The notes under the pieces: generated by a model | What the model saw: only the letters and a program-made list of their open reading frames with translations | Told to the model about the DNA's origin: nothing | Databases searched by the model: none | Position numbers and translations under genes: made by a program | Origin: Phycisphaerae bacterium | GTDB lineage: Bacteria; Planctomycetota; Phycisphaerae; UBA1845; PWPN01 | Reading direction: 5' to 3' | Assembly: GCA_012729395.1 (NCBI GenBank) | Contig: JAAYDF010000284.1 | Coordinates: 2,441 to 66,440, forward strand | DNA: 64,000 nt | In this document: positions 3,498 through 37,452 of the stretch, piece by piece | How positions within the stretch are numbered: the first letter of the stretch is position 1 | How the letters are laid out: every line of letters starts with the position of its first letter

Positions 3498-4844
3498 TCA
3501 AGGCCCCGCGTTCGGCTCCGCACGGACGAGCGAGTCCGCGGGGCTGGTACCCCTCAGGACCGCCTCACCTTCGCGGGCCGGCGGGATGCCCAGGGCGTCG
3601 TAAGCCCATCGTACCGGGACAGCCAGCCGGAGATCGTTGACCGCCGCACTGAGCACGTCGGCCAGCTCGCGCAGATCGCGAGGCGGGTCCAGCGGTCGGC
3701 GGAAGAACGGTACGGGTACGCCCGGCCCAAACCGCATCCTCGTCAACGGAGCCAGCACGTCCCGCCGGATCGTTCGGGCCTCCTTGCCGAGATCGTCCTG
3801 CCGCAGGTCCAGTCGCACTTCGTTGTGGATCACCGCCGCCGCGTAGGTGCCCGTCTCGCCGCTGGTCTCGACGGTCAACGTCTGCCCCAGCCAGGCCTTG
3901 GATATCTCGCGATTGAAGAACGCACACATGCCCTCGTAGGGCGGTGAACCTGTGCCGTGGCCGGCCTCGAACATCTGCAGCTCGACCGCCTTGCTGAAGA
4001 TGGCCGACGCGTCCGTCCCCATCGCCTGCAACATGCTCAGAAGTTCGCGCTTTTCCTGAGCGGTGGCTGAGGGCTCGTAACGCGCCACCCGCACCGGCAT
4101 GCCGAACACCTCGGCAAAAACCATCCAGTCCTTCATCGCGAAGTGCTTGCCCAGGTACGACAACGCACTGACCCGCAGCAGCCCGCCACGCATCGGATGA
4201 CCCGAGACCGCGTGCGGCGTGTGCACGATGAATTTGGCCGGCGGCAGGGCGATGCCGTCGTACGGCGCCGACCCGGTCAGCACGCGCGGTTCACCCAACT
4301 CGCCAAACGCCACCCGCCCGAAATCCACCGGCACCACGTCCACCAGACGCAGCTCGCCCTTCTGAAAGTCCCACACATTCTCCGCCAGAGCGATGTTCCG
4401 CCCGAGAGCCAGCGACAGATGCTGCAGCGTCTCATCAAATCGGTCGATCCCCGCCAGCACTTCACGACAGTAGTCAGCCGCCTCGTCGGCAGGCCCGCGG
4501 TCCACGCCCTCGCGCACATCGGCCGCGGACTCGATCTGCCAGCGCAGCCCGGTCACCGCCCGCCGCCGCGTGTTCGCTACCGAATAGAGGTGGCCGTCCT
4601 TCTCCTCCATCTGCTCGAACAGGGCCATCGCCTGATCGACCGCGCCCTCGTCCGCTGCCCGCAGGATGTCCGCCAGCCTGCCGGGGGTCAGTCCGTCGGC
4701 CGGGTAATCCCGCCACCGATCCAGAGCCGACGGCCCTATCAGTAGCCCCAACGGCGGCCGAGACTCGCGACCGCGATACTGCTCAAAGCCAGTACGACGC
4801 TTCCGCCCACCCAAGGCATTCGCCACCCGTCTCGCCCAACTCAT
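3498..4844 (-). CDS. Phage portal protein, Mu gp29-like (DUF935)
   Basis: ORF 3498-5147 trimmed to the ATG at 4844 (MSWARRVANALGG), preceded by GAGGTGA. The body (GLTPGRLADILRAADEG..LFEQMEEKDGHLYSV..RRRAV, FAEVFGMPVRVARY, AAAVIHNEVRLDLRQDD) matches Mu-like portals. Confidence 0.85.
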   Translation of the reverse strand: MSWARRVANALGGRKRRTGFEQYRGRESRPPLGLLIGPSALDRWRDYPADGLTPGRLADILRAADEGAVDQAMALFEQMEEKDGHLYSVANTRRRAVTGLRWQIESAADVREGVDRGPADEAADYCREVLAGIDRFDETLQHLSLALGRNIALAENVWDFQKGELRLVDVVPVDFGRVAFGELGEPRVLTGSAPYDGIALPPAKFIVHTPHAVSGHPMRGGLLRVSALSYLGKHFAMKDWMVFAEVFGMPVRVARYEPSATAQEKRELLSMLQAMGTDASAIFSKAVELQMFEAGHGTGSPPYEGMCAFFNREISKAWLGQTLTVETSGETGTYAAAVIHNEVRLDLRQDDLGKEARTIRRDVLAPLTRMRFGPGVPVPFFRRPLDPPRDLRELADVLSAAVNDLRLAVPVRWAYDALGIPPAREGEAVLRGTSPADSLVRAEPNAGP

Positions 4845-4903
4845 CCGCTCACCTCGATTCTCCACTGCTCCATTCCTCATCTCCAATGCCGCATTCCCAA
4901 TGC

Positions 4904-6325
4904 CTACCAGATTCCTTCGCGTGCGAAGCGCAGGCTCGGCCCATGCAGCGCCTCGGGTCGGCCGCTCGCTTGACCCGCGGCCCGCACGGCCAGACACGCC
5001 GCCCAGAAGCGATCGCCGTGACCTCCCGATGACCGGTCGGCCTCGTATCGGCCCGGTCCGGCCGCGGTGACCGAGCGGCGAATCGAATGCCAGTTGTTGC
5101 GAATGGCCTCGTCCACCGGGATGCGGATGCGCCGATCCTCGACACACAGTCGCAGCCGCGTGGCCAACTCGTCCTTCAAGGCCGCCGTGAAAACCAGCGG
5201 CTCGACCCTCGATCGCCCGAACGATTCGACGGCTTCCTCGGCCAGGGCCAGCCCGATGCCGCTCGCATCGATGCAGCAGCGATGCACCTGCCGCAGAGCC
5301 AACAGGCCATGCAACGCCTCTCGCTGCTTGCGGAACGGCTCGCCGCGACTCTCGCGCACCCCGCGCGTCACCAGCAGCTTGCCACTCGCCTCAACCACCC
5401 ACAGCACCGTCAGATCGCGATATCGCCCGATGTCCATGCCGACGTACAGCGGGCCACGGCAGGAGGCGAGCGCGGCGATATCGAACACCTTGTCCAAGCT
5501 CGGGTCTTCGACCTCGGCAATCTGGGCGTGCGTCAGGAAGGCCGACGATTCATCCAGGAACTCGCAGCCGAACTCCTGGCGATAGAGCTCGTCGTCGTGC
5601 ATCGAGCGGCGGATCTGCTCCGGGTCGATCTCCAGGCCCGCCGTCACCGCGTCCGCCAGCGTCACCGTCGAGTGATGGAAGAGCGGGTTGTCGCGCAGCT
5701 CGGCAAACAAGTTGCCGCAACCGCGGGGCGTCGAGGCGACATCGAGCTCACCGTCGCCCCGCAACACGCTGGGGAACATCGCCGCCCAGATGGCCCGGTC
5801 GTCGCGGTGCATGGCAAACTCGTCAAGGAAAACATCGCCGGTAAAGCCCCGAGCGGTGGTCGGGTTGGCCGGCAAGCCGATCACCCGTACGCCGTTGGGC
5901 AGCTCGATGACCAGTTGCCGGAAGCTGGTCGTGCCCAGAAAACCGTCGCCGTGAAACTCCGCCGCCAGATTGAGCGCCCGGCAATGCTGCCGCGTTTTGA
6001 GCATCAGCTCGCGACTCTGGCGTTCGCCGGCCGACAGGAAGATCTGCGTCCGCCGCCGCTGCAATCCGCGCAGCAGACGACGAAGCGACTTCGTGAAACT
6101 CTTGCCGATCTGCCGCGACCAGCAACACCAACTGAACCTCGCCGTCGACAGCACGTCGGCCTGCTGGTAGCTCAGCAGAGGCACAATGGGCGACGAGGAT
6201 GGCTGGCAGTTCAGCAGGGGCTCAACGGGCGACGAGGACGCGGGTGTATCGGAGGCCGTGATGCCCGAATCGGCTACGTCTGCCTGCCGCGTGCCGTCCG
6301 CTGACGCTCCCGCCCCCATGTTCAT
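4904..6325 (-). CDS. Phage terminase large subunit, Mu gp28-like
   Basis: ORF 4904-6508 trimmed to the ATG at 6325 (MNMGAG). Walker A SRQIGKSF and Walker B DVFLDEFA. Nuclease acidic motifs GMDIGRYRD, IDASGIG and GHGDRFWAACLA are all intact. Confidence 0.85.
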   Translation of the reverse strand: MNMGAGASADGTRQADVADSGITASDTPASSSPVEPLLNCQPSSSPIVPLLSYQQADVLSTARFSWCCWSRQIGKSFTKSLRRLLRGLQRRRTQIFLSAGERQSRELMLKTRQHCRALNLAAEFHGDGFLGTTSFRQLVIELPNGVRVIGLPANPTTARGFTGDVFLDEFAMHRDDRAIWAAMFPSVLRGDGELDVASTPRGCGNLFAELRDNPLFHHSTVTLADAVTAGLEIDPEQIRRSMHDDELYRQEFGCEFLDESSAFLTHAQIAEVEDPSLDKVFDIAALASCRGPLYVGMDIGRYRDLTVLWVVEASGKLLVTRGVRESRGEPFRKQREALHGLLALRQVHRCCIDASGIGLALAEEAVESFGRSRVEPLVFTAALKDELATRLRLCVEDRRIRIPVDEAIRNNWHSIRRSVTAAGPGRYEADRSSGGHGDRFWAACLAVRAAGQASGRPEALHGPSLRFAREGIW

Positions 6326-6530
6326 GCCTCGTGACCAGGCTTGCCGTCGCCAACACGCCGCACCAGTGACAACGCCCCGACCGCCCCGTGACCCCGCGAG
6401 ACTGCCGGGGCGACGACACACGAGCGCGGTACACCCCAACGAGCCCGAAGCGCAAGCGCCGGGTTCAGTGGAGCGCCAGCGACCGTCCAAACGACGACTC
6501 GCATACACCGCTCACAGTGCAGTGCCACAC

Positions 6531-6575
6531 GGATCTGCGATCTGAAATCTCAAACTGCAAATTGCAGATCTCGAG
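6531..6575. repeat. GATCTGA/AGATCT-rich short repeat with central CTGCAAATTGCAG palindrome
   Basis: Sequence is ggatctgcgatctgaaatctcaaactgcaaattgcagatctcgag. The same motif family occurs at 42064-42136. Confidence 0.6.
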
Positions 6576-6664
6576 CCAGCGATTCGATCGTGTGCCCTCA
6601 CCTCTCACGCCTCGCACGCATCCCGCACCGCTCACAGATCAGTGCCGCGCGAACGCTGTGCTCA

Positions 6665-8680
6665 CTACTCCAGCACCACCATCTGGTGGCAGAGAAGCTG
6701 GTCGAGCTTAAACCGCAGACCTTGTGGGGTGTGTTGAAAGGCGAGCGGCTGCCCTTGCGGTTCGAGCGTGACCTTTGTCACCGGGCGTGGCAATCGCAGG
6801 GTAACGCACACGTCATGCAACGGCAGCAAATCCTCGATGACCTCCACGGGGGCACTGCGGCCGGTGATCGTGCTGCCCTCGACCGCCAAGCTGCCGCCGC
6901 GGGTGCTCATGGTGGCGTGCAGCAAGTGGAGGACGTATCGCCCCTGCTCTGGCTGCTCCATGAGCGACAGCCGGGCGGTCGACGGCAGGTCGCTCGTCAG
7001 CGTGCGGCCATCGCCGAGCAGGAGATCCAGCGCCCGCGTGACGTACTTCCGACAAGCAACAGCCCCGAACGCACGATAGATGGTAAAAACCGGATGGGCG
7101 AGGTACAGGATCGAGCCGTGCAGCACACCGCAGTCGTAGCCAGACGGTTCAGGCTGATACGGAGCGTGCTGGTGGCTGCAGAAATGCTGCCACGTCCGGT
7201 TGAAGTACGGATCGTGCACTTGGCCGAGCGATCGGCCGTGGGTAACGCGGATGCGCCGCGAACGCATGTACATGACCATCGGCGCGGCGACGTAGTCCGG
7301 CGCGATCTCTCCCGTCGGCTGAACGTAATCCGGCTGGAACGGGCTGGGGCCCGCGTCGTCGGCACCGATATCAAAGGCGAACGCCTCGCCGCTCGCCCGC
7401 AGGCCGCCGCCACCCGTCAGGAACAACCTGCCCCCTGCCGCCAAGTACGCCTCCAATTTGGCCCGCAGCGTCTCATCGACAGGCACGTCGTCCGGCAACA
7501 CGATCACCTTGTACCGGGCGAAGTCCATCTGATCGTCGAGCACGTCGAACAGGTAATGCCCTTCGAGCAAAACGCGAGCGGCCCCGGTGTCCGCCGGGCT
7601 CTCGACCTCTGTTTGCCGACGAACGGCCGCGCTCGACAGCAAACCCACGTCCGCGACCGATCGGGCACCCGCGCACCAGGGCTCCTTCCGCTCGACCTCG
7701 GCATACGCCTGCCCGACCAGCGCGTACGTGCTCTCATCGAGTGTGCCGCACGGATGGAGCTGATCGCCGACGCTGCACTTGGCCCCAAAGGCCAGCATGG
7801 CAGCACATTCGTACCGCAGCGCATTGGGGTGCTTGTACCCCCCGAACTCGCCCCAGGTGGTGTGGAACTTGCCAGTCATACCCAGGTAGTCAAGACCCAG
7901 CAGGTGGCAGTACTTGGCCGCGAAGGGGAAATGATCGTACCCCCATCCGCCAGTGGGAAGCGACTCGAGCTCGAGGTGACTGTAGAACCTCAGCAGCTCT
8001 CGCCGGCGGCCGGTGTGGGCACTGTTGTGGAAGACCGGCAGACCGGCACGCTCGGCACGGACGGCCGCAGTGGCGCGCTGGTAGTACCGCTGAACAGCCA
8101 GCTCCGCGCAACGCAGCCGGTCCATCTCATGCGTCGGATCCAGACCCTCGTGCTCCATGACCTCTCTACACCACCGACAACAGCATTGACCCTGGGAGAC
8201 GATGTCCAGAAAGATGCCGTCCGCCTCAGGAAACAGCCGCACTACCTCGCTGATCTGCTCGCACAGATAGTCCAGGTACGGCGAGTGGAAGCACATGGTG
8301 TGGAAGCCAGGCATCAACAACCCCGTGACCCAGCCGAGATAACGACCTCCGGCGTCCACCTCCCGCCATTCCGGGTGCTCGCTCGACATCACATTATCCA
8401 GCCCGGCCGACAGGTAGATCGGCACGTTGACGTCGATCTCCTTGCTGGCCTCAACCTGCGCCCGCAACAGGTCGAACGAAAGATGCGGATGCTGCCGGCC
8501 GACCCGCGTCGGGTGGTAGCTCCAGCCGTGGTGGCATTTGGCGAAGCAGGTGATCGAGTCGACATGGCCCGCCCGCAGGGTGTCCTGCCAATGCCGCTTG
8601 TCGAACGCCGCTCCGATACCCGCAATGTCGGGCGAGGTATGGAAATCCAGGTGGACCTGCCGAAATCGTAACTGGTGCAT
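6665..8680 (-). CDS. Putative glycoside hydrolase (TIM-barrel, GH42/alpha-amylase-like, with beta-galactosidase-trimerisation-like C-terminal region)
   Basis: 671-aa ORF, ATG at 8680 preceded by GAGGAGGG. N-terminus VHLDFHTSPDI..FAKCHHGWSYHPT and a Cys cluster CCCRWC. The family call is from memory of similar annotations and is not verified. Confidence 0.6.
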   Translation of the reverse strand: MHQLRFRQVHLDFHTSPDIAGIGAAFDKRHWQDTLRAGHVDSITCFAKCHHGWSYHPTRVGRQHPHLSFDLLRAQVEASKEIDVNVPIYLSAGLDNVMSSEHPEWREVDAGGRYLGWVTGLLMPGFHTMCFHSPYLDYLCEQISEVVRLFPEADGIFLDIVSQGQCCCRWCREVMEHEGLDPTHEMDRLRCAELAVQRYYQRATAAVRAERAGLPVFHNSAHTGRRRELLRFYSHLELESLPTGGWGYDHFPFAAKYCHLLGLDYLGMTGKFHTTWGEFGGYKHPNALRYECAAMLAFGAKCSVGDQLHPCGTLDESTYALVGQAYAEVERKEPWCAGARSVADVGLLSSAAVRRQTEVESPADTGAARVLLEGHYLFDVLDDQMDFARYKVIVLPDDVPVDETLRAKLEAYLAAGGRLFLTGGGGLRASGEAFAFDIGADDAGPSPFQPDYVQPTGEIAPDYVAAPMVMYMRSRRIRVTHGRSLGQVHDPYFNRTWQHFCSHQHAPYQPEPSGYDCGVLHGSILYLAHPVFTIYRAFGAVACRKYVTRALDLLLGDGRTLTSDLPSTARLSLMEQPEQGRYVLHLLHATMSTRGGSLAVEGSTITGRSAPVEVIEDLLPLHDVCVTLRLPRPVTKVTLEPQGQPLAFQHTPQGLRFKLDQLLCHQMVVLE

Positions 8681-8859
8681 GATAACTGTCCCTCCTCAAG
8701 ATGGGACCAGCGAATTGGCTCGCGTGAGTACCGCGAAACACGACTCCATCGCCGCGGCATCGCGTTTTGACCACCAAGAGGCAGACCAGGAGCGGCGTTC
8801 TTGCTGACGAGCGGTCCACCCGCATGGCTGCCGGGTTCCCTCGCCATTTTGCTGTCTTC

Positions 8860-9981
8860 TTACTCACCGCGCCACTCTGTGGCCAGCCTCTCCGCCAGCG
8901 GCGCCGCCCGCATGAAGGCCGCATCCACCACCCGCCCGGTCAGCGCTGCCGCCAGGCTCTGCGCCCAGCTCGGCTGAGGCAACTCGATACACCGCGGGAG
9001 ATGGCATACCCGCTCGTCGTGGATGAGCACGCGGAACTCACTGGGCGCCTCGTCATTTGACCGGACCTCATACCGTGTACCGCCTCCGCCGAAAACCACG
9101 GCCTGCAAGCCGAGCCGCTTGCCACCAAGCGTCAAACGCACGCGCACCTCGCGATCATCCGCCCGAAACGCATGCTCGCCAGTCCCCAGTGCCTTCACCG
9201 CCTGCCAGCCCAACTGACCCGCCACAAAAGCCGCTACCCAAATCGCGTCGATGCGGTCCTCGACTCGATCTCCACCCGCCGCCACCTCCAGCGACTCGAT
9301 CCGCCCCCATATCTCCCGAGGCGAGCCGTCGAACATGCCCGCCAGAACTTCCCGCCACTGGGAGGTTCGGTACCAACCCAGCTCGCGAACCGCCGCATGG
9401 TCGCCCGGAGTCAGATGACGCAAGCCCGCTGGGCCCGAATCAACAATCAACCGATCCGCCCGCGCCGCCACACACCGCCACAACTCAGGCCATCGACCCG
9501 GGTCAGGCAACCACCATGCCATGGTCGGCACGTCCGCCTCCAGCAACGGCAGCAAAGTCCGGTCAAGGTCGCGGCCGTCGTCCGCCGCGGTCCCAAGTAC
9601 AACCTGCTCGCAGCAGACCTGCGGCTGTCCCGGTTGCGGCACATGGCACAACGCCGAGACCGACGCACGCACGCCACCACCAGCTCCCGCCGTGATATCC
9701 TGCGTCCGTCCCGCGGAATCGAGCAACACAACCAGTGTCCGCGTCGGGTAATGAGGCGACAGATCACCCAGCACGTCGTTGACCGCGTTGAACCCCTCCT
9801 CCGACGCGACCACGATCAGGTTGGCGACACACACCCGTGTGGCGGTGACATGCTCGCCAGAGCCGGCATGCTGGCCTTGGGCTGATTCCCATAACCGGGC
9901 AAACGCCCGTTCAACATCGTCCGGACGGCGCAGAATCCCCCCTTCCGGAGTCAGCAACGCTGCCCAGCCTTCGTCGGGCAT
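8860..9981 (-). CDS. OpcA-like (glucose-6-phosphate dehydrogenase assembly protein-like) protein
   Basis: ORF 8860-10056 trimmed to the ATG at 9981 (MPDEGWAAL), with GGAGG 5 nt upstream. RVCVANLIVV, ALCH..CCEQVVL and DVPTMAWW resemble OpcA. There is no adjacent zwf. Confidence 0.55.
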   Translation of the reverse strand: MPDEGWAALLTPEGGILRRPDDVERAFARLWESAQGQHAGSGEHVTATRVCVANLIVVASEEGFNAVNDVLGDLSPHYPTRTLVVLLDSAGRTQDITAGAGGGVRASVSALCHVPQPGQPQVCCEQVVLGTAADDGRDLDRTLLPLLEADVPTMAWWLPDPGRWPELWRCVAARADRLIVDSGPAGLRHLTPGDHAAVRELGWYRTSQWREVLAGMFDGSPREIWGRIESLEVAAGGDRVEDRIDAIWVAAFVAGQLGWQAVKALGTGEHAFRADDREVRVRLTLGGKRLGLQAVVFGGGGTRYEVRSNDEAPSEFRVLIHDERVCHLPRCIELPQPSWAQSLAAALTGRVVDAAFMRAAPLAERLATEWRGE

Positions 9982-10216
9982 AACGCCTCCATCGCGAAAA
10001 CCCCCCAATGGCCGCGGGTCAACACCTGTGCGCCCGATAATCGTCCCGCCCCTCATTGTTCACCCTTGCCCGGCCCGCCGCAAGGGTAACAACGCATGTT
10101 TATCGCTTTTTCCGTTTGCAGAGCCCACCTCGCGAATCGTAAGCTCTACGCGGATGGGATACACAATGCGGGGAACCGTGCAGCCACGAAGCCCCAAACC
10201 GATCGAGGAGTCAATC

Positions 10217-10696
10217 ATGCACGTGCCAATGATGGGGGAGATTCTGTCCGAAATGGGTCTGCTCACCTCACAGCAGGTCGAGGATATCCTCGAACACCAG
10301 CGCCGCTCACGCCAGAAATTCGGCCAGATCGCCGTCCATCAGGGCTTGGTCACACCAGAACAGGTCTGGGAAGCCTGGGCCCGACAAGTCAGCTATCGGC
10401 GACAGTTCATCGACCTGGATGTGATGGGCGTCGACACCGAAGCCGTTCGCCGTGTCGGGGTGTCCACCGCACGGGCACTGGAGGTAGTCCCGCTCCGGCT
10501 GTGGGGCGACAACCTCGTGGTCGCGTGCTCACCCGAGTTCCGTTCCGGTGCTCTGTCGGATTTGGCCGAGCGTACCGGATGCCAAATCCATGCTTGCATC
10601 GCGCTGCCCGAGAGCATCCGCTATCACCTGAACCAGCTCGATAACGTCCTGGAGTCCGCCGAGAAGGAAACCACCCTCGTGCCCATGTGCGGCTGA
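10217..10696 (+). CDS. Stand-alone T2SS/T4P GspE N-terminal (MshEN-like) domain protein
   Basis: ATG at 10217 with GAGGAG at 10205-10210, an internal start of ORF 9779-10696. IDLDVMGVDTEAVRRVGVSTARALEVVPLRLWGDNLVVACSP has the pattern of GspE/PilB N1 domains. No ATPase domain follows. Confidence 0.65.
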   Translation: MHVPMMGEILSEMGLLTSQQVEDILEHQRRSRQKFGQIAVHQGLVTPEQVWEAWARQVSYRRQFIDLDVMGVDTEAVRRVGVSTARALEVVPLRLWGDNLVVACSPEFRSGALSDLAERTGCQIHACIALPESIRYHLNQLDNVLESAEKETTLVPMCG

Positions 10697-13681: not shown

Positions 13682-13747
13682 ATCACCGAGGCGTTGACCG
13701 GGGATCATCACTTTGACCAGGCCGGATTCGTGACCCTGCCCACATGA
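13682..13747 (+). pseudogene. C-terminal remnant of a PIN-domain (VapC-like) toxin
   Basis: This frame reads ITEALTGDHHFDQAGFVTLPT-stop, the conserved C-terminal tail of VapC toxins. The roughly 110 N-terminal codons are missing. The coupled ATG at 13674 gives only MKVSPRR-stop. Confidence 0.5.
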
Positions 13748-14213
13748 ACGATCCGGTGGCCCGCGACATGCCACAATCCGATTCTCTGACCCGCGACACG
13801 CCCGGCCTTCGAGCCTGAAGGGCTCGTTCTACCGCCCAGGCCGAGGGCCTGGGGAACCGGACTCCCCCAAGCCCCAGGCCTGAAAGGGCCGTCACCCGCG
13901 ACATCAATCATTCCGCACGGCGGTTCAACCGCCAGTCGCGTGCGTCCCGCAGAGCCGCGACCGTCAGGGAGCGGACCTTTCCCCGATGCGCCCAGGCCGC
14001 CGCAAACGTCACGACCCCATCGGCGGCCGACTCGGAGCCCCCCATCCTCTTGCTCGCCCACAGCCCCCCCCGCACTGCCCCGCCAAGCAACCGACAGAAT
14101 CATCCTGAACCCCTCTTCTTCGAGGCGATCCCTGAGCCGTCCGATGTGGGAGCGTAGAGGCGCTAATCGTTTACACCCCGCTTGTATGCTTCCACCTCGA
14201 TACCTGCCGATAT

Positions 14214-15200
14214 TCATCGCCTACATAGTGGCTGCACCGTCGAGCTGGACACAAAAGCTTGGTGCGCTTCGCGACTTGGGAGAATTGCGTCGGGACGATT
14301 CAGGTTAACAACGATTGTACCTGCACAGCAGTGGTGACGCTCTCTGCCCCGTGCAAAGGCCTCACCGAGGTGCGAGGGTTCAGCCGTTGGCGGGGTCTCG
14401 GAGCAGTGCTCGGAAAGCTGGGTGCAGGCAATCCATGCCTCCGGGAGCGTTTGACGGATCGCCCCAATGACTTCAGGGCGTGGCGTCCCATGCACGCCAC
14501 GGCCTATTGAGAACACAACAATCTCAGGCTTAACTGCTTCGCACAATGCTTTCGTGAAAGCTGTCATATCAGTCCGACCAGCCCCACCTCCATGGTGCGG
14601 AAACACAACTATCTGCGCAGTCATGTCCTTCCCTGATTCAAGAAGGCCGGAAAGGCCAACTTCGTCAAGATCGCCGGGGAGGAGTGCTATTGGTTGACCT
14701 TGATCCAGAAGTCGCACAACCGCGCTGATTGAGTTGGTGGTTACACGGCGTCCTTCTCGATCGCGACTTCCGGGTCCCCCACTGGCTAGGTACCGGCTGG
14801 GCCCGAGTATTTCGAGGCGGACACCGCCGTGATCGAACCGGCCAGTTGCGTCAGAAGTAAGTGAGACCTCAAAGGCAAGTTTCTGGGAGTTGTGTGCTCG
14901 ATCAAGTTCGTACCTGAGATCATCCCAGAGGGCGGATCGCTGCTTTGAGTCCGCGTTGATGTGGACGCGTCCAAGCGTGAACTCGGCGCATGCGAGAAGG
15001 TGGATCAATCCGCCAATGTGGTCTTGGTCCGCATGCGACAGGAGCACGATATCCACCCGCTCAATTCCTTGCTGCTTCAGGTACTGACGCAAGGAATCTC
15101 CACGCCCGGTGTCAATGACTACAATCCCGTCCTCGTCGATGAGGACAGCACTGTTTCCATGGCCAACATCGAGAATCGCCAGCCTGTGCCCATTCGGCAT
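14214..15200 (-). CDS. ComEC-type metallo-beta-lactamase-fold hydrolase (putative nuclease)
   Basis: 328-aa ORF, ATG at 15200 preceded by GAGGTGG. LAILDVGHGNSAVL, SHADQDHIGG (HxDxDH, aa 56-61) and FPHHGG. Cys-rich C-terminus (CTQLSEHC..HHCC). Confidence 0.75.
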   Translation of the reverse strand: MPNGHRLAILDVGHGNSAVLIDEDGIVVIDTGRGDSLRQYLKQQGIERVDIVLLSHADQDHIGGLIHLLACAEFTLGRVHINADSKQRSALWDDLRYELDRAHNSQKLAFEVSLTSDATGRFDHGGVRLEILGPSRYLASGGPGSRDREGRRVTTNSISAVVRLLDQGQPIALLPGDLDEVGLSGLLESGKDMTAQIVVFPHHGGGAGRTDMTAFTKALCEAVKPEIVVFSIGRGVHGTPRPEVIGAIRQTLPEAWIACTQLSEHCSETPPTAEPSHLGEAFARGRERHHCCAGTIVVNLNRPDAILPSREAHQAFVSSSTVQPLCRR

Positions 15201-15208
15201 AAACCACC

Positions 15209-15880
15209 TCAGGACGGTTCCCAGTTGCAGAAGTACAGTTCTTCGACCTTCTCGCAGCCAACATTCGCTCGCGCATGAAACCGATTGCCGGGCTTGACGA
15301 GCTTACGCACATCGCCAGGGAGGTCATCCACAAGCACTCGTATCTTCACCCTGGGGTTCCATCCTGGAACTACCACATGAAAGTATCCATCGTCTAAAGA
15401 AGCGTCTTCGACGCGCACCAGCGTCCTAGAGGCTTCACGGCTCGGCTGAAACTGTCCTTGGAATTCCTCTATGCAGCGCTCAAACCCCTGCCTCAAGGAA
15501 TCTGGGTTCATGTCCGCGCTCTGAAGGAGCACCGGTATAAACTGCCGGCGGCTCCTCATCAGAGTGACATCCCAGTCGTTGTAGGCGGTGCAAAGCACGG
15601 CCGGAAGTTGAGCCTTGTAACACTCTACGACGAGTTCGTCTCCGTCGAATCGGGCGTAGTTACGCATCCTGAGATGGTAGTCACAGAGCACTGCATCTGC
15701 TTCGGCATGCCGCACATGCTGCACGAATCTCTCAGGCGTTTTAAGTTCCAAAAGGCTGGCCTCCGTGGCAGCGCTCACCCTCAGATCCTCAACCGCCCAC
15801 CCATAGGCTTCCCTTGCCGCTGGGTCGTCGTCGATGATGCATACCCTGTGGATCGACCTGCCTGCAAGTTGAAGCGGCAT
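15209..15880 (-). CDS. Receiver (REC)-like domain protein with uncharacterised C-terminal module
   Basis: 223-aa ORF. IIDDD (D17-D19), D67 in AVLCDYHL and T98 in AVLCTAY match the REC acidic pocket, phospho-acceptor and Thr. The conserved Lys position is not obvious. The last ~80 aa match no family I recognise. Confidence 0.65.
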   Translation of the reverse strand: MPLQLAGRSIHRVCIIDDDPAAREAYGWAVEDLRVSAATEASLLELKTPERFVQHVRHAEADAVLCDYHLRMRNYARFDGDELVVECYKAQLPAVLCTAYNDWDVTLMRSRRQFIPVLLQSADMNPDSLRQGFERCIEEFQGQFQPSREASRTLVRVEDASLDDGYFHVVVPGWNPRVKIRVLVDDLPGDVRKLVKPGNRFHARANVGCEKVEELYFCNWEPS

Positions 15881-15883
15881 GGC

Positions 15884-17950
15884 TTACACTCCAAGAATAG
15901 GAAGCTCCACGAAGATCTCTGCGCCACCAAGCGCACCGTGCTCGATCGCGTCTACCTGCCCTCCCATGTCCCGAACAGCATCCCGAACGATGGTGAGGCC
16001 CAGTCCCGTTCCGTTCCTCCGCGTTGTTTGCCCGGGCAGCCAAATGTCGCTCTTGCTAATCCCTTCAATTCCTGGCCCATTGTCGAGGATTGACATGGTG
16101 AGGATATCAGCATTTACAGCTGTCCGTACAACCAGCATTCGCTTCGTTGTGCTGGCCCGCTCAAAAGCAGCCAGGCTGTTGTTGATGAGATTGGTAATAA
16201 TCGATTCCACTGCTGCCTGGCTTGCTCGCAGATAGGGTGAGCCGGCGACTAGGTCCATTCTGACCACAACGTCACGACCCCGCAAGAAGGGCTCAAACGT
16301 GTTAAGGATTCCCGAGATCACGTCGTGAATATCCACTCTGGAAGCACGACGCTTGTCGTGATCAACGAGCTTGAGCGTCGCGTCGCCTAGGACCGCTAAG
16401 CGCCCCGTGGCTTGACTAATCGATGCTACCGGTTTCTCAAGCTTTTTGACATAGAACTCGGCAGATTCCTCCTTTGCACGTCGCTCGATAGTCATGACTG
16501 CTTGGCGGATGATCTTCAATGGGTTTCCGCTGGATTCATGAGCGAAGGTAACGGCCGTTATCCCAGCCGTGCTCAAGGTGCGATACAACTGTATTTCCTT
16601 CCGCAGTTGCTGGGCTTCACGCTCGCGTGAACGATCGTAGGCTTCTGCTGCTGCCTGGAGAGCCGGCCTTACGGCCTTGGGCGTGTTTTCGATTGCCTGG
16701 TCCAAGTCCCTCTTTGCCTTCCGCGCTCTCTTGGGTGCCGCCGCCCGTTCGCTCGCACGCCGCTTCTCTGCCTCCTCCAACCTTTTTCGTGCCATCCATT
16801 CCATCGCATCCTGTGCAAAGGACTTGAGCCCAGCAAAAGCCTCCCCCTCAATAAAGCCAGAACGGTCTGTCTTTTCCACCAACACATCCGATGTGTCGCA
16901 GAATCTGACGCGACCGATTGAGGTGTTGGTCCCCGGCCGCTCCTCCGGACTTTGGACTCTTCGCAGATCTATGTCAAGCCAATCATGCCCTGGACTGCCA
17001 TAAGGTTCAACCTTGATACCATTCCGATAGAGATGTACGCCGCCGAACTCCTGGAGCCATTCCCGGACTTCACCGATGCTTGACCGCCTAGTCGAGAAGG
17101 TGCTGTGCTGAAGCAGAAACACCCACAGATCGAATTGCGTGGCCGGGCACTCATACAACTTGTGCTGACGCTGTGAAGTCAAATCATCGTGAGTTGCCGC
17201 AAACACTCGCTTTCCTTGCCAGTCAAGCACGGACGCGCGAGCATGTCCTCGACTGTTGACGCGAGCACGTAGGTGATACTCCGCATCATCGAAGTAGCGT
17301 TTCCGGACGAGATCCTCCAAATCCGAAAACTCAGGAGCCGCTAGGGTTGGCTTGAAGCCGCGGGGATCATCACCAAAGGGATCGGCAAGCAGGATCAGGG
17401 ATCGGGCAAGCCGTTTAACATCCATCCTGCCAATCTTGGTTCTCAAATCTTCGATAAGAATTTGAGTGCCAGGATGCACATCCGAGGCTCGGTGGCTCTT
17501 TTCGATTGTGAGTGCTACGTCATCGATAACCTCGACGTCTTCGTATTCGTCCCAATCGATGAGGAGATCGTACTGTGTCGCCTTTTCTTGCTTTGGGCGC
17601 GTGGTCAGAAGAACTCTTGCACCCATGCGCAGAGCCGCCAGTCGGCCAAGGCCCTTGCTTCCCACGGGTATCCGGCCGAGGCGCGTTGGCGAACCTGTGC
17701 TCTTCTCGGAACGTCCCAACACAAGCCAGCCCCGCTCGATTCCGTTAGCATCCATTCCATCGCCATTATCGACTACGCGCACCGAACCGCCAAGTTGGTC
17801 CGTGTTCATTAGTTCAACCGTACATTTGCGCGCGTCGGCATCGTATGCATTCTTGACCAGTTCCAAAAGCCCTTTGTCGGGGCTAGGGTTGAGTTCTTCG
17901 CCTAGTCGTCTCAGAATGTCCGGGGCAAATCGTATCTGGACTGTGCTCAC
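15884..17950 (-). CDS. Fusion of MutL/MORC/Hsp90-type GHKL ATPase with a HisKA+HATPase_c histidine kinase
   Basis: 688-aa ORF whose GTG start overlaps the MTase stop (GTGA). N-terminal ELVKNAYDADA, VVDNGDGM and GSKGLGRLA. A coiled-coil linker, then FAHESSGNPL (H471), NLINNSLAAF, ILDNGPGI and GTGLGLTIV. No TM or PAS segments seen. Confidence 0.75.
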   Translation of the reverse strand: MSTVQIRFAPDILRRLGEELNPSPDKGLLELVKNAYDADARKCTVELMNTDQLGGSVRVVDNGDGMDANGIERGWLVLGRSEKSTGSPTRLGRIPVGSKGLGRLAALRMGARVLLTTRPKQEKATQYDLLIDWDEYEDVEVIDDVALTIEKSHRASDVHPGTQILIEDLRTKIGRMDVKRLARSLILLADPFGDDPRGFKPTLAAPEFSDLEDLVRKRYFDDAEYHLRARVNSRGHARASVLDWQGKRVFAATHDDLTSQRQHKLYECPATQFDLWVFLLQHSTFSTRRSSIGEVREWLQEFGGVHLYRNGIKVEPYGSPGHDWLDIDLRRVQSPEERPGTNTSIGRVRFCDTSDVLVEKTDRSGFIEGEAFAGLKSFAQDAMEWMARKRLEEAEKRRASERAAAPKRARKAKRDLDQAIENTPKAVRPALQAAAEAYDRSREREAQQLRKEIQLYRTLSTAGITAVTFAHESSGNPLKIIRQAVMTIERRAKEESAEFYVKKLEKPVASISQATGRLAVLGDATLKLVDHDKRRASRVDIHDVISGILNTFEPFLRGRDVVVRMDLVAGSPYLRASQAAVESIITNLINNSLAAFERASTTKRMLVVRTAVNADILTMSILDNGPGIEGISKSDIWLPGQTTRRNGTGLGLTIVRDAVRDMGGQVDAIEHGALGGAEIFVELPILGV

Positions 17951-19428
17951 AGCTCATCGCTCCACCAAGGCAGTCGCCCTAGCGCTGACACGGTCAGGTG
18001 ACGACATCGAATTGACCTATCGAGCCAAGATGTTGTCTCGTGCCTCTGAAGGACGCGAACCAACCTAAGACAGAATCCCAGGGTACGCTTCTTTGGAACA
18101 AGCACCAGGAGGTGATTTTCGACAGCCACCGGTCTTGTTCCGGCAATCACAGTGGCGATGGCCCGATGCTTATCCCCGGGGCGCGAAGTTCTTCTCACGG
18201 CTACGAATGGAGGCAATATGGTCCGTCCCGCGAATCTCCGCCTTCCCGGGAGAGACCTGAGCACCTTCCAAGCTGGCAGTCCGCGCGAGAACGCAAATTC
18301 GCGCCATGGCCCGCGATGCGGATCCCGGTAGTCGACCACAGGGCCCACGCAAACGTCGAAGTAGTCGCCTACTGTAGCGGAATGAGTGCCACTCGGGATG
18401 CTCCAGGAAGTGCGGTACGTTGATCGGCCAGTGCTACGAACGATGAGGTCGAGAAGGAAAACGTCGACATCCGCCCACCTGTCAAAACGACCGTAGACGC
18501 GAACAGAGTTAATCCAGGTGCGAGCTTGGACGATATCCCTCCATTTCTGATAGCGGGTACCGCACCTGAGGACATCCGGCAGAATCGCCACGACACGGGC
18601 TCCACTCTTGGCTTGTCGGAGGCATGTTTCCACGAATACCGCCGCCGAGTTGACAGACCCGGAAGCCCACTTGCAGCCGGGAGGGGCATGCATCGCCGTG
18701 TAAGGGGGGTTCATCACGATGTGGGAAGCTTTGGCAATTGCCCCGTCATCTCTCATCCCGCACCCAGTCCGCAAATGCGGAAAAAGGTCGGTGATGCATG
18801 GCAGCACTGGACTGCGTGGACGGATGCCCCGCGCAACTAGCGTCATCACGAGCCGAATCTTGGCAGCTCGAACAAACTCATCGTGGAGATCGTATCCGAT
18901 GATGCGGCTGCCCCAGAGTCTGAGCGTTCTCTCGAATCCCGTGGCAACAGGTAGGTGCCGAGCGCACTCGATGAGCAGATCACCCACGCCACAGGCAGGA
19001 TCGAGGATGACCGAATCCTCCGACAACGTGGATGCCGCTCCAGCAAGAGCTCGACGTGCGAGGCTTGAGCCCGTAAAGAACGCACCAGCCGACCGAACTT
19101 GCTCCGAGGGCACAAGACGATGGATCTCCTCCCTCGCTTGCCCGTCCAGCGCCGCGGCGAGTCTCTCGCGAGACGCTGGCGTCAAAGGCTCCACCAGTGA
19201 CTCTCCGAGGGTACGGCGGAGATCGACAAGATAGGGCTCGAACGCTTCCACTTGAGGCCTTATGCTCCAGTCAACTAGTACTACCCGGCCTGCGTGACAC
19301 GAAAAACGTGGGAGCACTGCCACCCCTGCGCAGCCACGCGTGGCCGAGAGCATCCACATTTGAGTGCGTCTATTTGTACCATAAAGAGCTGCGACCACAA
19401 GCGGAGCCCGACTGCCCTCCCTGGCCAA
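17947..19428 (-). CDS. N6-adenine DNA methyltransferase (gamma-class, Eco57I/TaqI-like)
   Basis: 493-aa ORF. ILDPACGVGDLL (motif I) precedes IVMNPPY (motif IV, aa 238-243), followed by a long C-terminal putative target-recognition region. The listed start is a TTG at 19428. The ATGs at 19359/19353 are alternatives, so the start is uncertain. Confidence 0.75.
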   Translation of the reverse strand: MAREGSRAPLVVAALYGTNRRTQMWMLSATRGCAGVAVLPRFSCHAGRVVLVDWSIRPQVEAFEPYLVDLRRTLGESLVEPLTPASRERLAAALDGQAREEIHRLVPSEQVRSAGAFFTGSSLARRALAGAASTLSEDSVILDPACGVGDLLIECARHLPVATGFERTLRLWGSRIIGYDLHDEFVRAAKIRLVMTLVARGIRPRSPVLPCITDLFPHLRTGCGMRDDGAIAKASHIVMNPPYTAMHAPPGCKWASGSVNSAAVFVETCLRQAKSGARVVAILPDVLRCGTRYQKWRDIVQARTWINSVRVYGRFDRWADVDVFLLDLIVRSTGRSTYRTSWSIPSGTHSATVGDYFDVCVGPVVDYRDPHRGPWREFAFSRGLPAWKVLRSLPGRRRFAGRTILPPFVAVRRTSRPGDKHRAIATVIAGTRPVAVENHLLVLVPKKRTLGFCLRLVRVLQRHETTSWLDRSIRCRHLTVSALGRLPWWSDEL

Positions 19429-19622: not shown

Positions 19623-21758
19623 CTACGCCCCGGCCGCGACCGACTCATCCGCAGGCAGGGCCGCGGGCTTCGCCGCCTCCGATGCAAGAACTCGGATCGC
19701 CTGAAGCAGGGCCGCCCGGTCGATCGGTTTGCCCATGAACTCGTCGCAACCCGCCGCAAGGCAGCGCTGCCGCTCCTCAAGCAACGCGTGGGCCGTCAAG
19801 GCAATGATCGGGCTCCGGTAACCTTCGCGGCGAAGGGTCCGCGTTGCTTCGTACCCGTCCATCACCGGCATCTGCATGTCCATCAGGATAACGTCAAACG
19901 GCCGGCCAGCTTGCTGAGCGTTCAAAGCACGCTCCACCGCCTGCTCGCCGTTCTCCACGACGACCACGCTCGCGCCGGCCTTCTTGAGAATGAACGAGAT
20001 CAACCGCTGGTTGTCAGGACCATCCTCCGCCAGCAGGATCCGGGCAGACAACCGCTCACCCGATGAAGCCGGCAGAGCCGATGACTGACCGCCTTTCGCC
20101 CGACAGTGCGCCAGGTGTGAACCGACCAAGGCCACGCCCGTCAGATCCCCTGCCGCCACCGTCAAACGAAACCGCGCGCCAGCGCCCGGCGTCGATTCCA
20201 CCAGTACCAGATCACCCCCCAGCATCTGGGCCAGCCGCTTACTGATGCACAGGCCCAAACCCGTCCCCCCGTAACGACGAGTGGTCGAGGCGTCCGCCTG
20301 CGTGAACTCTCGGAACAACTTCTGCGCCTGCTCCGAAGATATCCCGATGCCCGTGTCCATCACGTCAAACTGCAACAAGGGACGCGGCGTGTCCGCATCC
20401 GCCAGCCGTACCAGCAAACGAATACCCCCGCTATCCGTGAATTTGATCGCATTGCTCAACAGGTTCGCCAGTATCTGCCGTAAACGCGTGGGGTCGGTCT
20501 CTACCGTCTCGGGCAGGTCGTCCAGATACTCAACCTTGAACGTCAACATCCGGTCACGCAGCCCCGCGTGAGCCAGTGACTCGGCACTCGCCACCAGCTC
20601 GAAAGGCGAACAGCGAATGCGCTCGACCATCAGCCGGCCGGCCTCGATCTTCGAAAGATCAAGGATGTCGTTGATCACCGTCAGAAGATGCAGCCCGTTC
20701 CGCTGGATCGCCAACACGGCCTCCTGCCGGTCCGCCTCCGCCAACTGCCCGTCCAGCAAGTTCTCCGAAAAACCCAGAATCGCAGTCAACGGCGTGCGGA
20801 TCTCGTGGCTCATGTGCGCGACAAAACGAGTCTTCGCGTGGTTCGCCGACTCCGCCGCCGCCTTGACCGTCTCCAGGTCGGCGATCGTCATCAGCAGCTC
20901 TTCGTGTTGCGCTTTGAGATACTCCTGCTGCGCTTCCAACTCCATATTCTTGTAGCGAAGGAGCTCCGCCTGCTTCTCCAGCTGCTTCTCCGCCTCTTTG
21001 CGGTGGGTGTGGTCCATCGCGATTTCGCAGCGAACCATGCGGCCGTCGGGCCAACGAATCACTTGGTCGATGCAGTGGAACCATCGCCCGGTCCGGCGAT
21101 TACAGAAGTCCCAGGTGTAAGACTCGCCCGGCCGGTCATGAAACAGCCGACCGTTCGTACAAAACGAGCAAGGGGCCTCCAACCCCTGAAGCGCCTCGTA
21201 GCACTTCCGCCCGGTCACGTCGCCAAAGTACCTGCGAAACGTCTCGTTGACATAAAGCAGCTCGTAAGTCTGCGGATCACACGCGTAGACCGGTTCGCCA
21301 AGGCTCTCCAGAATCGCTATGAGCTGCTTGTGTGAGGCCTCCACCTCATCATCGAGCCGCCGCCGCTCCGCCGCGTGACGGGCTTCCGCTAACACCAACT
21401 CCACCCGGTAAGGCAGACCGGCCCAAGCGGTTTCCGTCCGTACCACGCAGTCGGCGGCCCCGGCGCCCAGGATCGCCGCCACCTCTTGGGGCGTCGCCCA
21501 GTTCGCCAGGATCACCACCGGAAAGACATGCTTGGGATCCTGAGGGGCAATCAGGTCCGTTCCCCGACCATCCGGCAGAATCAGGTCCGCCATGACCAAG
21601 TCCGGCAAACCTTCCCGCAGGCTCTCCCGGGCCTCGCGAAGACTGCCGGTCAGGATCAGACTGCAACGCTTGGTCAGCGGAGCCAGCGCCAAGCGCAACG
21701 CCTCACGATCCGCCTCGCTTTCCACAGCCAACAAAATGACACTCGGCCCGCCTTGCAC
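19623..21758 (-). CDS. Hybrid sensor histidine kinase/response regulator (REC-PAS-HisKA-HATPase_c-REC)
   Basis: 711-aa ORF with a GTG start. N-terminal REC ([11 protein letters not shown]), H-box [14 protein letters not shown]-boxes DTGIGI and GGTGLGL, C-terminal REC ([12 protein letters not shown]). Confidence 0.85.
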
Positions 21759-37443: not shown

Positions 37444-37452
37444 GAGAACATC

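Follow-up and report, generated by a model that had tools for sequence, protein, structure and literature searches.

Introduction

Histidine kinases that carry a second, MORC/MutL/Hsp90-type ATPase module have been described beside phage-defense and restriction-modification (R-M) genes, and we report here on a four-gene cassette built around such a kinase, which is encoded at 15884..17950 (minus strand, GTG start, 688 aa) of a 64,000-nucleotide stretch of DNA from Phycisphaerae bacterium (assembly GCA_012729395.1, contig JAAYDF010000284.1), hereafter called the window. One of the closest described systems is Ambrosia, an anti-phage system of Pseudomonas aeruginosa that consists of the XRE regulator AbrR, the N6-adenine DNA methyltransferase (MTase) AbrA, AbrB (termed a 'sensor histidine kinase/HSP90-like ATPase'), the REC protein AbrC and the HNH protein AbrD (bioRxiv 10.1101/2025.09.30.679545). 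Point mutations in every Ambrosia protein, including N40A in AbrB, D60A in AbrC and H60A in AbrD, abolish defense, and reporters that replace AbrA or AbrD show hardly any expression in the absence of phage and strong induction upon infection, for which a transcriptional model was proposed in the same preprint. Phage propagated on cells that express AbrA was still sensitive to Ambrosia, indicating that methylation by AbrA did not protect the phage (bioRxiv 10.1101/2025.09.30.679545). AbrB comprises 747 aa with HATPase_c_3 and HATPase_c domains, and no HEF_HK was found in it by the preprint's own Pfam scan (bioRxiv 10.1101/2025.09.30.679545). HEF_HK is the dimerization and histidine-phosphotransfer (DHp) domain of a second described group, proteins of the composition HATPase_c_3, 'HEF_HK' and HATPase_c, 91.6% of which are linked to a gene for a REC-like 'Response_reg_2' protein and which are enriched near R-M genes; an origin from paraMORCs has been proposed for these kinases, and their HATPase_c_3 domain has been suggested as the sensor (Bellieny-Rabelo et al. 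2021, PMC8011034). The paraMORCs themselves occur in R-M operons together with nucleases and methylases (Iyer, Abhiman and Aravind 2008, PMC2292703). Our analysis, which is based on sequence and structure comparisons, suggests that the window kinase is probably the sensor-transmitter of an R-M-like defense cassette homologous to Ambrosia.

Results

Two GHKL modules in one kinase

Pfam places a HATPase_c_3 domain at aa 26-142 (E 1.3e-19) and a HATPase_c domain at aa 579-684 (E 5.3e-17) of the kinase, and a scan at E <= 10 finds no transmembrane segment and no PAS, GAF or HAMP domain in it. In a 33-member family alignment, the residues E30, N34, D61, G63, G65, G97, K99, G100 and G102 of the first module are invariant, as are H471, E472, P477, N587, N591, D623, G625, G627 and G647-L652 of the second. 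Most motif residues of both ATP sites are still invariant or nearly so among 58 relatives that are 24-59% identical. These results bear out the initial annotation of this DNA, made from the sequence alone, which had read a MutL/MORC/Hsp90-type module and a histidine-kinase catalytic and ATP-binding (CA) domain in one polypeptide lacking conventional sensor domains; its residue numbers are correct, and the strand, which it did not state, is minus.

The initial annotation had also proposed a structural comparison of aa 1-380 with MutL, MORC and Hsp90 and had described the region between the two modules as about 250 aa of unknown fold. In an AlphaFold2 model of aa 1-440 that was built on a 71-sequence alignment (pLDDT 84, pTM 0.78), the chain forms two alpha/beta domains and then, at aa 370-421, a helix. 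By Foldseek against the PDB, the model matches the MORC2 ATPase with DNA (9cdh, E 6e-14), SMCHD1, MORC3, Hsp90/TRAP1 and MutL LN40, and the top matches, which are GHKL+S5 modules, span about 420-450 aligned columns at E 6e-14 to 1e-10. This alignment shows that the N-terminal part is a complete GHKL+S5 (transducer) ATPase and not a degenerate duplicated CA domain, the alternative that the initial annotation had raised against its own proposal, and the middle region turns out to have the S5/transducer fold. Within this fold, R363 of the motif K360-T-D-R363 is invariant across the 58 relatives, together with D323 and W324, while K360 is invariant across the close family of the 33-member alignment. 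R363 is a candidate for the basic finger by which the S5 domain would reach toward the ATP gamma-phosphate. The MORC-specific S5 motif GhXhhpXXRhl (PMC2292703) is absent from the kinase: from G346 onward the sequence reads G-R-V-R-F-C-D-T-S, with a non-hydrophobic residue at +1 and no Arg at +8, and the consensus of the 58 relatives is also without it. Since this motif is absent, we consider the first module to be paraMORC-grade rather than MORC. The first module also resembles the N-terminus of the BbrUII/HgiDII restriction enzymes (NCBIfam NF050001, E 8e-19) and REase_II of PADLOC; the NF050001 match is confined to the GHKL domain at aa 12-184 and scores 67.6 bits, against a cutoff of 550 bits for full-length members.

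The two modules are joined by a linker with helices at aa 370-421 and 428-439 (assigned by DSSP on the AlphaFold2 model), in the sequence of which R, E, A and K abound. Judged from its motifs, the C-terminus is a canonical DHp/CA histidine kinase, and both autophosphorylation and phosphotransfer are predicted for it. NCBIfam reports AtoS, ZraS and FixL matches over aa 440-685, and the C-terminal 245 aa match the kinase cores of FixL, ZraS and CpxA in the PDB (E about 1e-10). H471 is aligned with the H-box of FixL (AHE..PL), and the DHp is of the FixL/NtrB-like HisKA kind. The Pfam HisKA model gives no match to the window kinase, probably because of a one-residue insertion in the H-box region.

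The kinase belongs to a four-gene operon

The initial annotation treated the kinase alone and missed that its gene shares an operon with those for a DNA methyltransferase, for a REC protein and for a metallo-beta-lactamase (MBL) nuclease candidate. The kinase gene is the second of four genes in a tightly packed minus-strand operon with the order MTase, kinase, REC and MBL. The stop codon of the MTase gene overlaps the start codon of the kinase gene (GTGA), the REC gene starts 3 nt past the kinase stop, and the MBL gene starts 8 nt past the REC stop, where it is preceded by GGTGG. The maximal open reading frame (ORF) of the MTase reaches 19428; its likely start is the GTG at 19251, which we chose from the lengths of homologues (399-439 aa) and an upstream GGAG, and which leaves a non-coding stretch of roughly 370 bp upstream. 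PADLOC gives the MTase a weak mad2/MTase_II match. We rejected an identity of the cassette with MADS, as this weak match is the only mad-like feature and no other mad genes are present.

The third protein matches Pfam Response_reg weakly (E 7e-4). Its AlphaFold2 model (pLDDT 92.7) nevertheless aligns with REC domains by Foldseek at E 6e-6 and a TM-score on the target of 0.6-0.72. In its family, D18 and the phosphoacceptor D67 are invariant and D17 and T98 nearly so. The C-terminal domain has five strands and is rich in beta structure, and it matches no family: the top 50 Foldseek hits cover the REC part only, and the profile search against the PDB is insignificant. Neither Pfam nor Foldseek gives a helix-turn-helix (HTH) or winged HTH match for this domain. 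The order of its elements in the model, beta1-3, a helix and beta4-5, suggests an OB-like barrel, as far as secondary structure alone can tell.

The fourth protein carries the MBL motifs H56-A-D58-x-D60-H61, D177/D179 and H202-H203 and, in addition, a conserved C-terminal cluster of cysteines (C259, C266, C291, C292 and C326). The best PDB match of its family profile is the MBL nuclease domain of ComEC/Rec2 (E 7e-15), and no HNH match is found in this fourth gene of the cassette.

Homology to the Ambrosia system

The gene order N6-MTase, HATPase_c_3+HATPase_c kinase, REC protein and nuclease is common to Ambrosia and the window, with the difference that the predicted nuclease is a ComEC-type MBL hydrolase in the window and an HNH protein, AbrD, in Ambrosia. 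By BLASTP, the window MTase is 37% identical to AbrA over 367 aa (E 6e-72), and the window kinase is 27% identical over 379 aa (E 3e-33) to the first 399 aa of AbrB, a comparison that covers the GHKL+S5 region and in which ELVKNAYDADA is identical. The primer table of the Ambrosia study and our alignment together identify AbrB N40 as the Asn of ELVKNAYDADA, which is N34 of the window kinase. Because N40A abolishes defense, the MORC-like ATP site is required for defense in the homologue AbrB. The initial annotation had proposed to compare Asn mutants of the two ATP sites (N34A versus N590A), and half of this comparison thus exists for a homologue in the form of AbrB N40A (bioRxiv 10.1101/2025.09.30.679545). 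The window REC protein matches AbrC by BLASTP at E 5e-4 and by hhalign with a probability of 88% (E 3e-6), in both cases over the REC domain, and D67 is aligned to AbrC D60.

A widespread and probably mobile cassette

At least 120 clusters formed at 90% identity match the kinase at 59-65% identity, nearly all of them equal in length to it. In a representative library clustered at 50% identity, 1008 clusters match it at E <= 1e-30, and the majority of the 150 best of these are aligned over their full length, which argues that the likeness in both modules is not due to chance. The initial annotation had considered this architecture to be unusual. It is in fact widespread, was described in 2021 (PMC8011034) and was validated in phage defense in 2025 (bioRxiv 10.1101/2025.09.30.679545). 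The annotation had allowed that it might prove common in ordinary metabolic two-component systems: it is common, but the company it keeps is that of R-M-like defense cassettes and not of metabolic genes. A search of genome contigs with the kinase alone returned three full-length true relatives, the rest being MutL genes, paraMORC operons and ordinary kinases.

By tblastn, eight other loci, the flanks of which are unrelated, carry the four genes in collinear order. They are found in Latescibacterota, Gemmatimonadota-type and gammaproteobacterial metagenome-assembled genomes (MAGs), on a plasmid of Hymenobacter volaticus and on a conjugative Burkholderia plasmid. The identity to the window proteins is 49-65% for the kinase, 43-57% for the MBL protein, 32-53% for the REC protein and 35-51% for the MTase. 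Among the neighbors in other loci are genes of type I R-M systems, one Eco57I-like gene and toxin-antitoxin systems. In the window, the cassette lies in a low-GC island (14200-19300) with a GC content of 0.55-0.59, compared with 0.62-0.66 in the housekeeping flanks, which include the genes for LeuA, endonuclease V, OpcA and glycogen synthase. Scans of 13-20 kb for tRNA genes, Rfam families, promoters and terminators gave nothing above background. The cassette is probably horizontally mobile.

The fourth gene is the one that changes among relatives. In one related locus (L034, ENA contig_14, 3700-8163), the cassette retains its genes for the MTase, the kinase and the REC protein, and a PIN-domain gene stands in place of the MBL gene; a type I R-M locus encloses this cassette, with the HsdM/HsdS genes on one side and the HsdR gene on the other. 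Its REC protein has an extra C-terminal tail of 28 aa, with the PIN gene directly after it. The tail recalls the toxin-binding tail of an antitoxin. On plasmid P2 of Deinococcus gobiensis I-0 (L031, 2500-8517), an Eco57I-type MTase, a double-GHKL kinase of 750 aa, a weakly REC-like protein of 215 aa and an HNH endonuclease follow one another downstream of two HTH regulators. The kinase of this locus is more distant, and the locus presents an Ambrosia-like layout outside the Gammaproteobacteria. As MBL, HNH and PIN proteins alternate there, the fourth position appears to be a slot for interchangeable nucleases, a typical trait of defense systems. On plasmid ABRG53c of Pseudanabaena sp. ABRG5-3 (L028, 6001-10777), intact genes for the kinase and the REC protein have no MTase gene beside them, and an IS982 transposase interrupts the MBL gene. 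This single case fits inactivation of the nuclease after loss of the methylase, or else simple decay.

Besides these cassettes, several more distant loci came to our attention. A double-GHKL kinase of 745 aa, 26% identical to that of the window, is encoded in a Chitinophagaceae MAG (L016, 3590-11935), where it is preceded by a 1073-aa protein without a Pfam match and a PAPS-reductase-like protein and followed by two unknown proteins; this locus may represent a form that works with another kind of DNA-modification chemistry. A distant double-GHKL kinase is present on 43 Campylobacter plasmids. On one of them, the conjugative plasmid pCCDM224L of Campylobacter coli (L030, 4989-9442), the gene for the 732-aa kinase precedes those for a 340-aa response regulator and a convergent dcm C5-methylase, a layout that resembles the one described in PMC8011034. 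Through the likeness of the N-terminal GHKL domain we also found paraMORC operons in Pseudomonas and Lysobacteraceae (L007, L006 and L019, about 5600-10400), composed of a SNF2 helicase, a HATPase_c_3 protein of 535-539 aa and a third gene of 286-288 aa. These paraMORCs are stand-alone relatives of the first kinase module; the domains were confirmed by Pfam for the first of the three loci (L007), where the third gene encodes an HNH nuclease.

Features of the cassette and its surroundings

Table 1. Positions of the cassette genes and of the kinase domains in the window
Feature	Position	Strand	Basis
N6-adenine DNA methyltransferase, AbrA-like, 434 aa	17947..19251	minus	motif I DPACGVGD before motif IV NPPY; Pfam N6_Mtase E 4e-5
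GHKL (Bergerat) ATPase domain, MORC/MutL/Hsp90 type, kinase aa 1-190	17381..17950	minus	E30, N34, D61xGxG65, G97xKGxG102; boundary approximate
S5/transducer-like alpha+beta domain, kinase aa ~191-368	16847..17380	minus	AlphaFold2 and Foldseek; boundaries approximate
Long charged helix (coiled-coil linker) from ATPase module to DHp, kinase aa ~369-455	16586..16846	minus	DSSP on AlphaFold2 model
DHp (H471-E472...P477) and CA (N587/N591, D623xGxG627, G647TGLGL652) domains with stop codon, kinase aa ~456-688	15884..16585	minus	
Response-regulator-like protein, 223 aa	15209..15880	minus	REC aa ~10-140 (D17-D18, acceptor D67, T98, P116) and beta-rich C-terminal domain aa ~150-221
MBL-fold metallo-hydrolase, 328 aa, predicted nuclease effector	14214..15200	minus	Pfam Lactamase_B E 1e-12; NCBIfam ComEC E 2e-12

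Two neighboring ORFs were considered and set aside. A 169-aa ATG ORF (13708-14217, minus) overlaps the MBL stop by 4 nt, an arrangement expected of a coupled gene, but it is probably spurious, being rich in G, R and A, without a family match and missing from the homologous cassettes. The interval between LeuA and the MBL gene is roughly 800 bp, and no other gene is assigned to it. A 711-aa hybrid kinase (19623-21758, minus) lies directly upstream of the cassette and consists of an N-terminal REC domain, PAS, HisKA and HATPase_c domains and a C-terminal REC domain. It is absent from all related loci and is not part of the cassette; it probably serves chromosomal signaling unrelated to it. Further away (35437-39375, plus), a glycogen synthase gene (668 aa, weak 'GT4-conflict' match) is followed by a gene for a 640-aa protein with an ADP-ribosylglycohydrolase domain, both unrelated to the cassette.

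Discussion

The architecture of the kinase, the close packing of the four genes, their conservation and their homology to Ambrosia form the ground of the assignment that we favor. It is further supported by the Ambrosia mutants, the low-GC island, the change of the fourth gene among relatives, the likeness of the MBL protein to the nuclease domain of ComEC, and the R-M and toxin-antitoxin genes beside other loci. We consider it probable as far as identity and role are concerned, and we hold its details with less confidence. A competing assignment is that of an ordinary cytoplasmic two-component system, the extra ATP-binding domain of which would sense nucleotide or energy status to regulate housekeeping genes, with the MTase and MBL genes being incidental neighbors. 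It could appeal to source annotations such as 'C4-dicarboxylate-specific signal transduction histidine kinase' or 'sensor histidine kinase' and to the NTP sensing speculated upon in PMC8011034, but we regard it as highly improbable, because the four genes travel together across unrelated contexts, phyla and plasmids, the cassette forms a low-GC island, the REC protein belongs to no DNA-binding output family and three of the four proteins have homologues in a defense system that has been validated.

Several observations weigh against the assignment to an Ambrosia-like defense cassette, or against some part of it. The canonical Lys before P116 of the REC protein is replaced by Ile. Its likeness to AbrC is weak and restricted to the REC domain, while the C-terminal domains are unrelated, beta-rich in the window and reportedly helical, or winged HTH, in AbrC. 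The comparison with AbrB covers the N-terminal ~400 aa of that protein. No AbrR-like XRE regulator is apparent, as inspection by eye, without an HTH motif scan, revealed no conserved small ORF upstream of the MTase gene, be it in the window or at seven related loci. With no winged HTH in the REC protein and no XRE regulator, the transcriptional model of Ambrosia may not transfer to the window. The second-best PDB match of the MBL family profile is phosphorylcholine esterase, and, given this match and the chemical diversity of MBL enzymes, the DNase activity of the fourth protein is to be taken as putative. PADLOC and NCBIfam, with which all cassette proteins were scanned, hold no model for the kinase, the REC protein or the cassette. 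Finally, anti-phage activity, which has been validated for Ambrosia, is a prediction for the MBL variant.

From the domains, motifs, operon structure, conservation and Ambrosia homology observed here, we infer a signal, a direction of control and DNA as the substrate of the nuclease, which together lead to the following model. The dimeric GHKL+S5 module would bind and hydrolyze ATP and would either clamp and scan DNA in the manner of MORC and MutL or answer an infection-specific DNA or protein cue. The coiled-coil helix could then relay the ATP-dependent dimerization of the N-terminal module to the DHp domain, whereupon the CA domain would autophosphorylate H471, and the phosphoryl group would pass from H471 to D67 of the adjacent REC protein. 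The phosphorylated REC protein is proposed to unleash the ComEC-type MBL nuclease on invading DNA, either directly through its beta-rich domain or through induced expression as proposed for Ambrosia. The MTase may mark DNA for self-protection or may be part of a targeting logic, as has been suggested for Ambrosia. That the first module acts as the input domain, as the initial annotation had supposed, is a reasonable idea, to which the N40A mutation in the homologue AbrB lends indirect backing.

The phosphorelay could act on the nuclease in more than one way. One possibility is control of the Ambrosia type, in which the kinase and the REC protein only switch on the MTase and nuclease genes upon infection, the C-terminal REC domain binding the operon promoter and no gating taking place at the protein level. 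The phage-induced reporters of Ambrosia (bioRxiv 10.1101/2025.09.30.679545) speak for such control, and the non-coding stretch upstream of the MTase start would offer room for it. The beta-rich domain without an HTH or winged HTH match, however, and the lack of an XRE gene speak against such control, and the kinase and REC genes share one tightly coupled operon with their supposed targets. In the PIN-bearing relative, moreover, the tail of the REC protein and the directly following PIN gene look more like control of a toxin at the protein level. We regard purely transcriptional control as possible but doubtful.

Another possibility is that of an ATP-dependent restriction complex, in which the GHKL+S5 module is a DNA-handling motor working with the MBL nuclease, the MTase provides self-protection and the kinase and REC parts tune or license the activity, for example by delaying restriction after entry into a new host. 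The resemblance of the N-terminal 180 aa of the kinase to BbrUII/HgiDII (and to REase_II in PADLOC), as well as the paraMORCs of R-M operons with their nucleases and methylases (PMC2292703), would agree with it, and the Pseudanabaena plasmid, which has lost the MTase and in which the MBL gene is split, is what an R-M system predicts after the loss of protection, even if this is a single case that could be simple decay. On the other hand, methylation by AbrA gave phage no protection in Ambrosia (bioRxiv 10.1101/2025.09.30.679545), and the invariant catalytic residues of the kinase and the REC protein argue for a central role of the phosphorelay and not an accessory one. We regard such a complex, too, as possible but doubtful.

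In our own model, we lean mildly toward control at the protein level in the window variant, a preference that follows from a REC protein without any HTH, from the missing XRE gene and from the PIN variant with its REC tail. In its most specific form, which we offer as a tentative proposal, the cassette would carry out restriction with a protein-level His-Asp phosphorelay set between detection and cleavage: a MORC-like, ATP-driven DNA clamp would read the status of DNA and switch the kinase fused to it, and the beta-barrel of the phosphorylated REC protein would directly license the MBL nuclease, or the PIN or HNH protein of the sister cassettes. If this is true, it would be the first case of a GHKL clamp as the input of a histidine kinase and the first of post-translational gating of a nuclease by a response regulator, unlike the transcriptional model of Ambrosia. 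Because MBL, HNH and PIN proteins can be swapped in the nuclease position, relatives of the cassette can be compared with regard to whether the relay acts on transcription or on the nuclease directly. The family may also be of more general use. How the engagement of DNA by MORC-family ATPases becomes a downstream signal is poorly understood in prokaryotes and eukaryotes alike, and since the output of a histidine kinase can be read by phosphorylation, double-GHKL kinases provide a tractable model for MORC-type signaling.

Comparison with other known systems helps to place the cassette. The window kinase shares with the HEF_HK pairs (PMC8011034) the combination of HATPase_c_3, DHp and HATPase_c, a soluble nature, an adjacent REC-like gene, an upstream methyltransferase, R-M genes and a proposed paraMORC ancestry. 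The partners differ, being an N6-MTase and an MBL protein in the window and a C5-MTase, HNH_2 or Vsr in the HEF_HK pairs (PMC8011034). PF19191 for the kinase and PF19192 for its REC-like partner, models for which we ran no positive control, match neither the window proteins (E <= 10) nor 57 relatives nor three plasmid relatives, including one beside dcm, which places the window proteins and their relatives on a separate branch of the HEF_HK kind. The window kinase resembles the MORC and paraMORC ATPases of R-M systems in its intact GHKL ATP motifs, in the S5-type domain behind them, where a basic residue is conserved, and in sharing its operon with genes for a methylase and a predicted nuclease, but its C-terminal fusion partner is a histidine-kinase transmitter, in contrast to the nuclease, TIR or other extension of the MORC and paraMORC proteins. 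A further system for comparison is Detocs, the sensor domain of which is of another type. Detocs also includes a second 'buffer' REC protein and an ATP-depleting PNP effector fused to REC, and it is not known to include a methyltransferase. The window cassette displays none of these features, and no sequence relationship to Detocs was detected, no search having been aimed at one. What Detocs (bioRxiv 10.1101/2023.01.24.525353) and our favored reading of the window have in common is a soluble sensor kinase that acts through a His-Asp phosphorelay on an effector under REC control.

In relation to all of these systems, the polypeptide with two GHKL modules is not new; what is new is the cassette variant with a ComEC-type MBL protein, a REC protein with a beta-rich domain and no XRE regulator, a broad environmental and plasmid range, and a position outside the PADLOC and NCBIfam models. 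Ambrosia is found mainly in Pseudomonadales, whereas the window variant occurs in Latescibacterota, Gemmatimonadota, Bacteroidota, Betaproteobacteria and Cyanobacteria. The MBL variant, which current defense-finder models miss, thus carries Ambrosia-like systems well beyond the Pseudomonadales.

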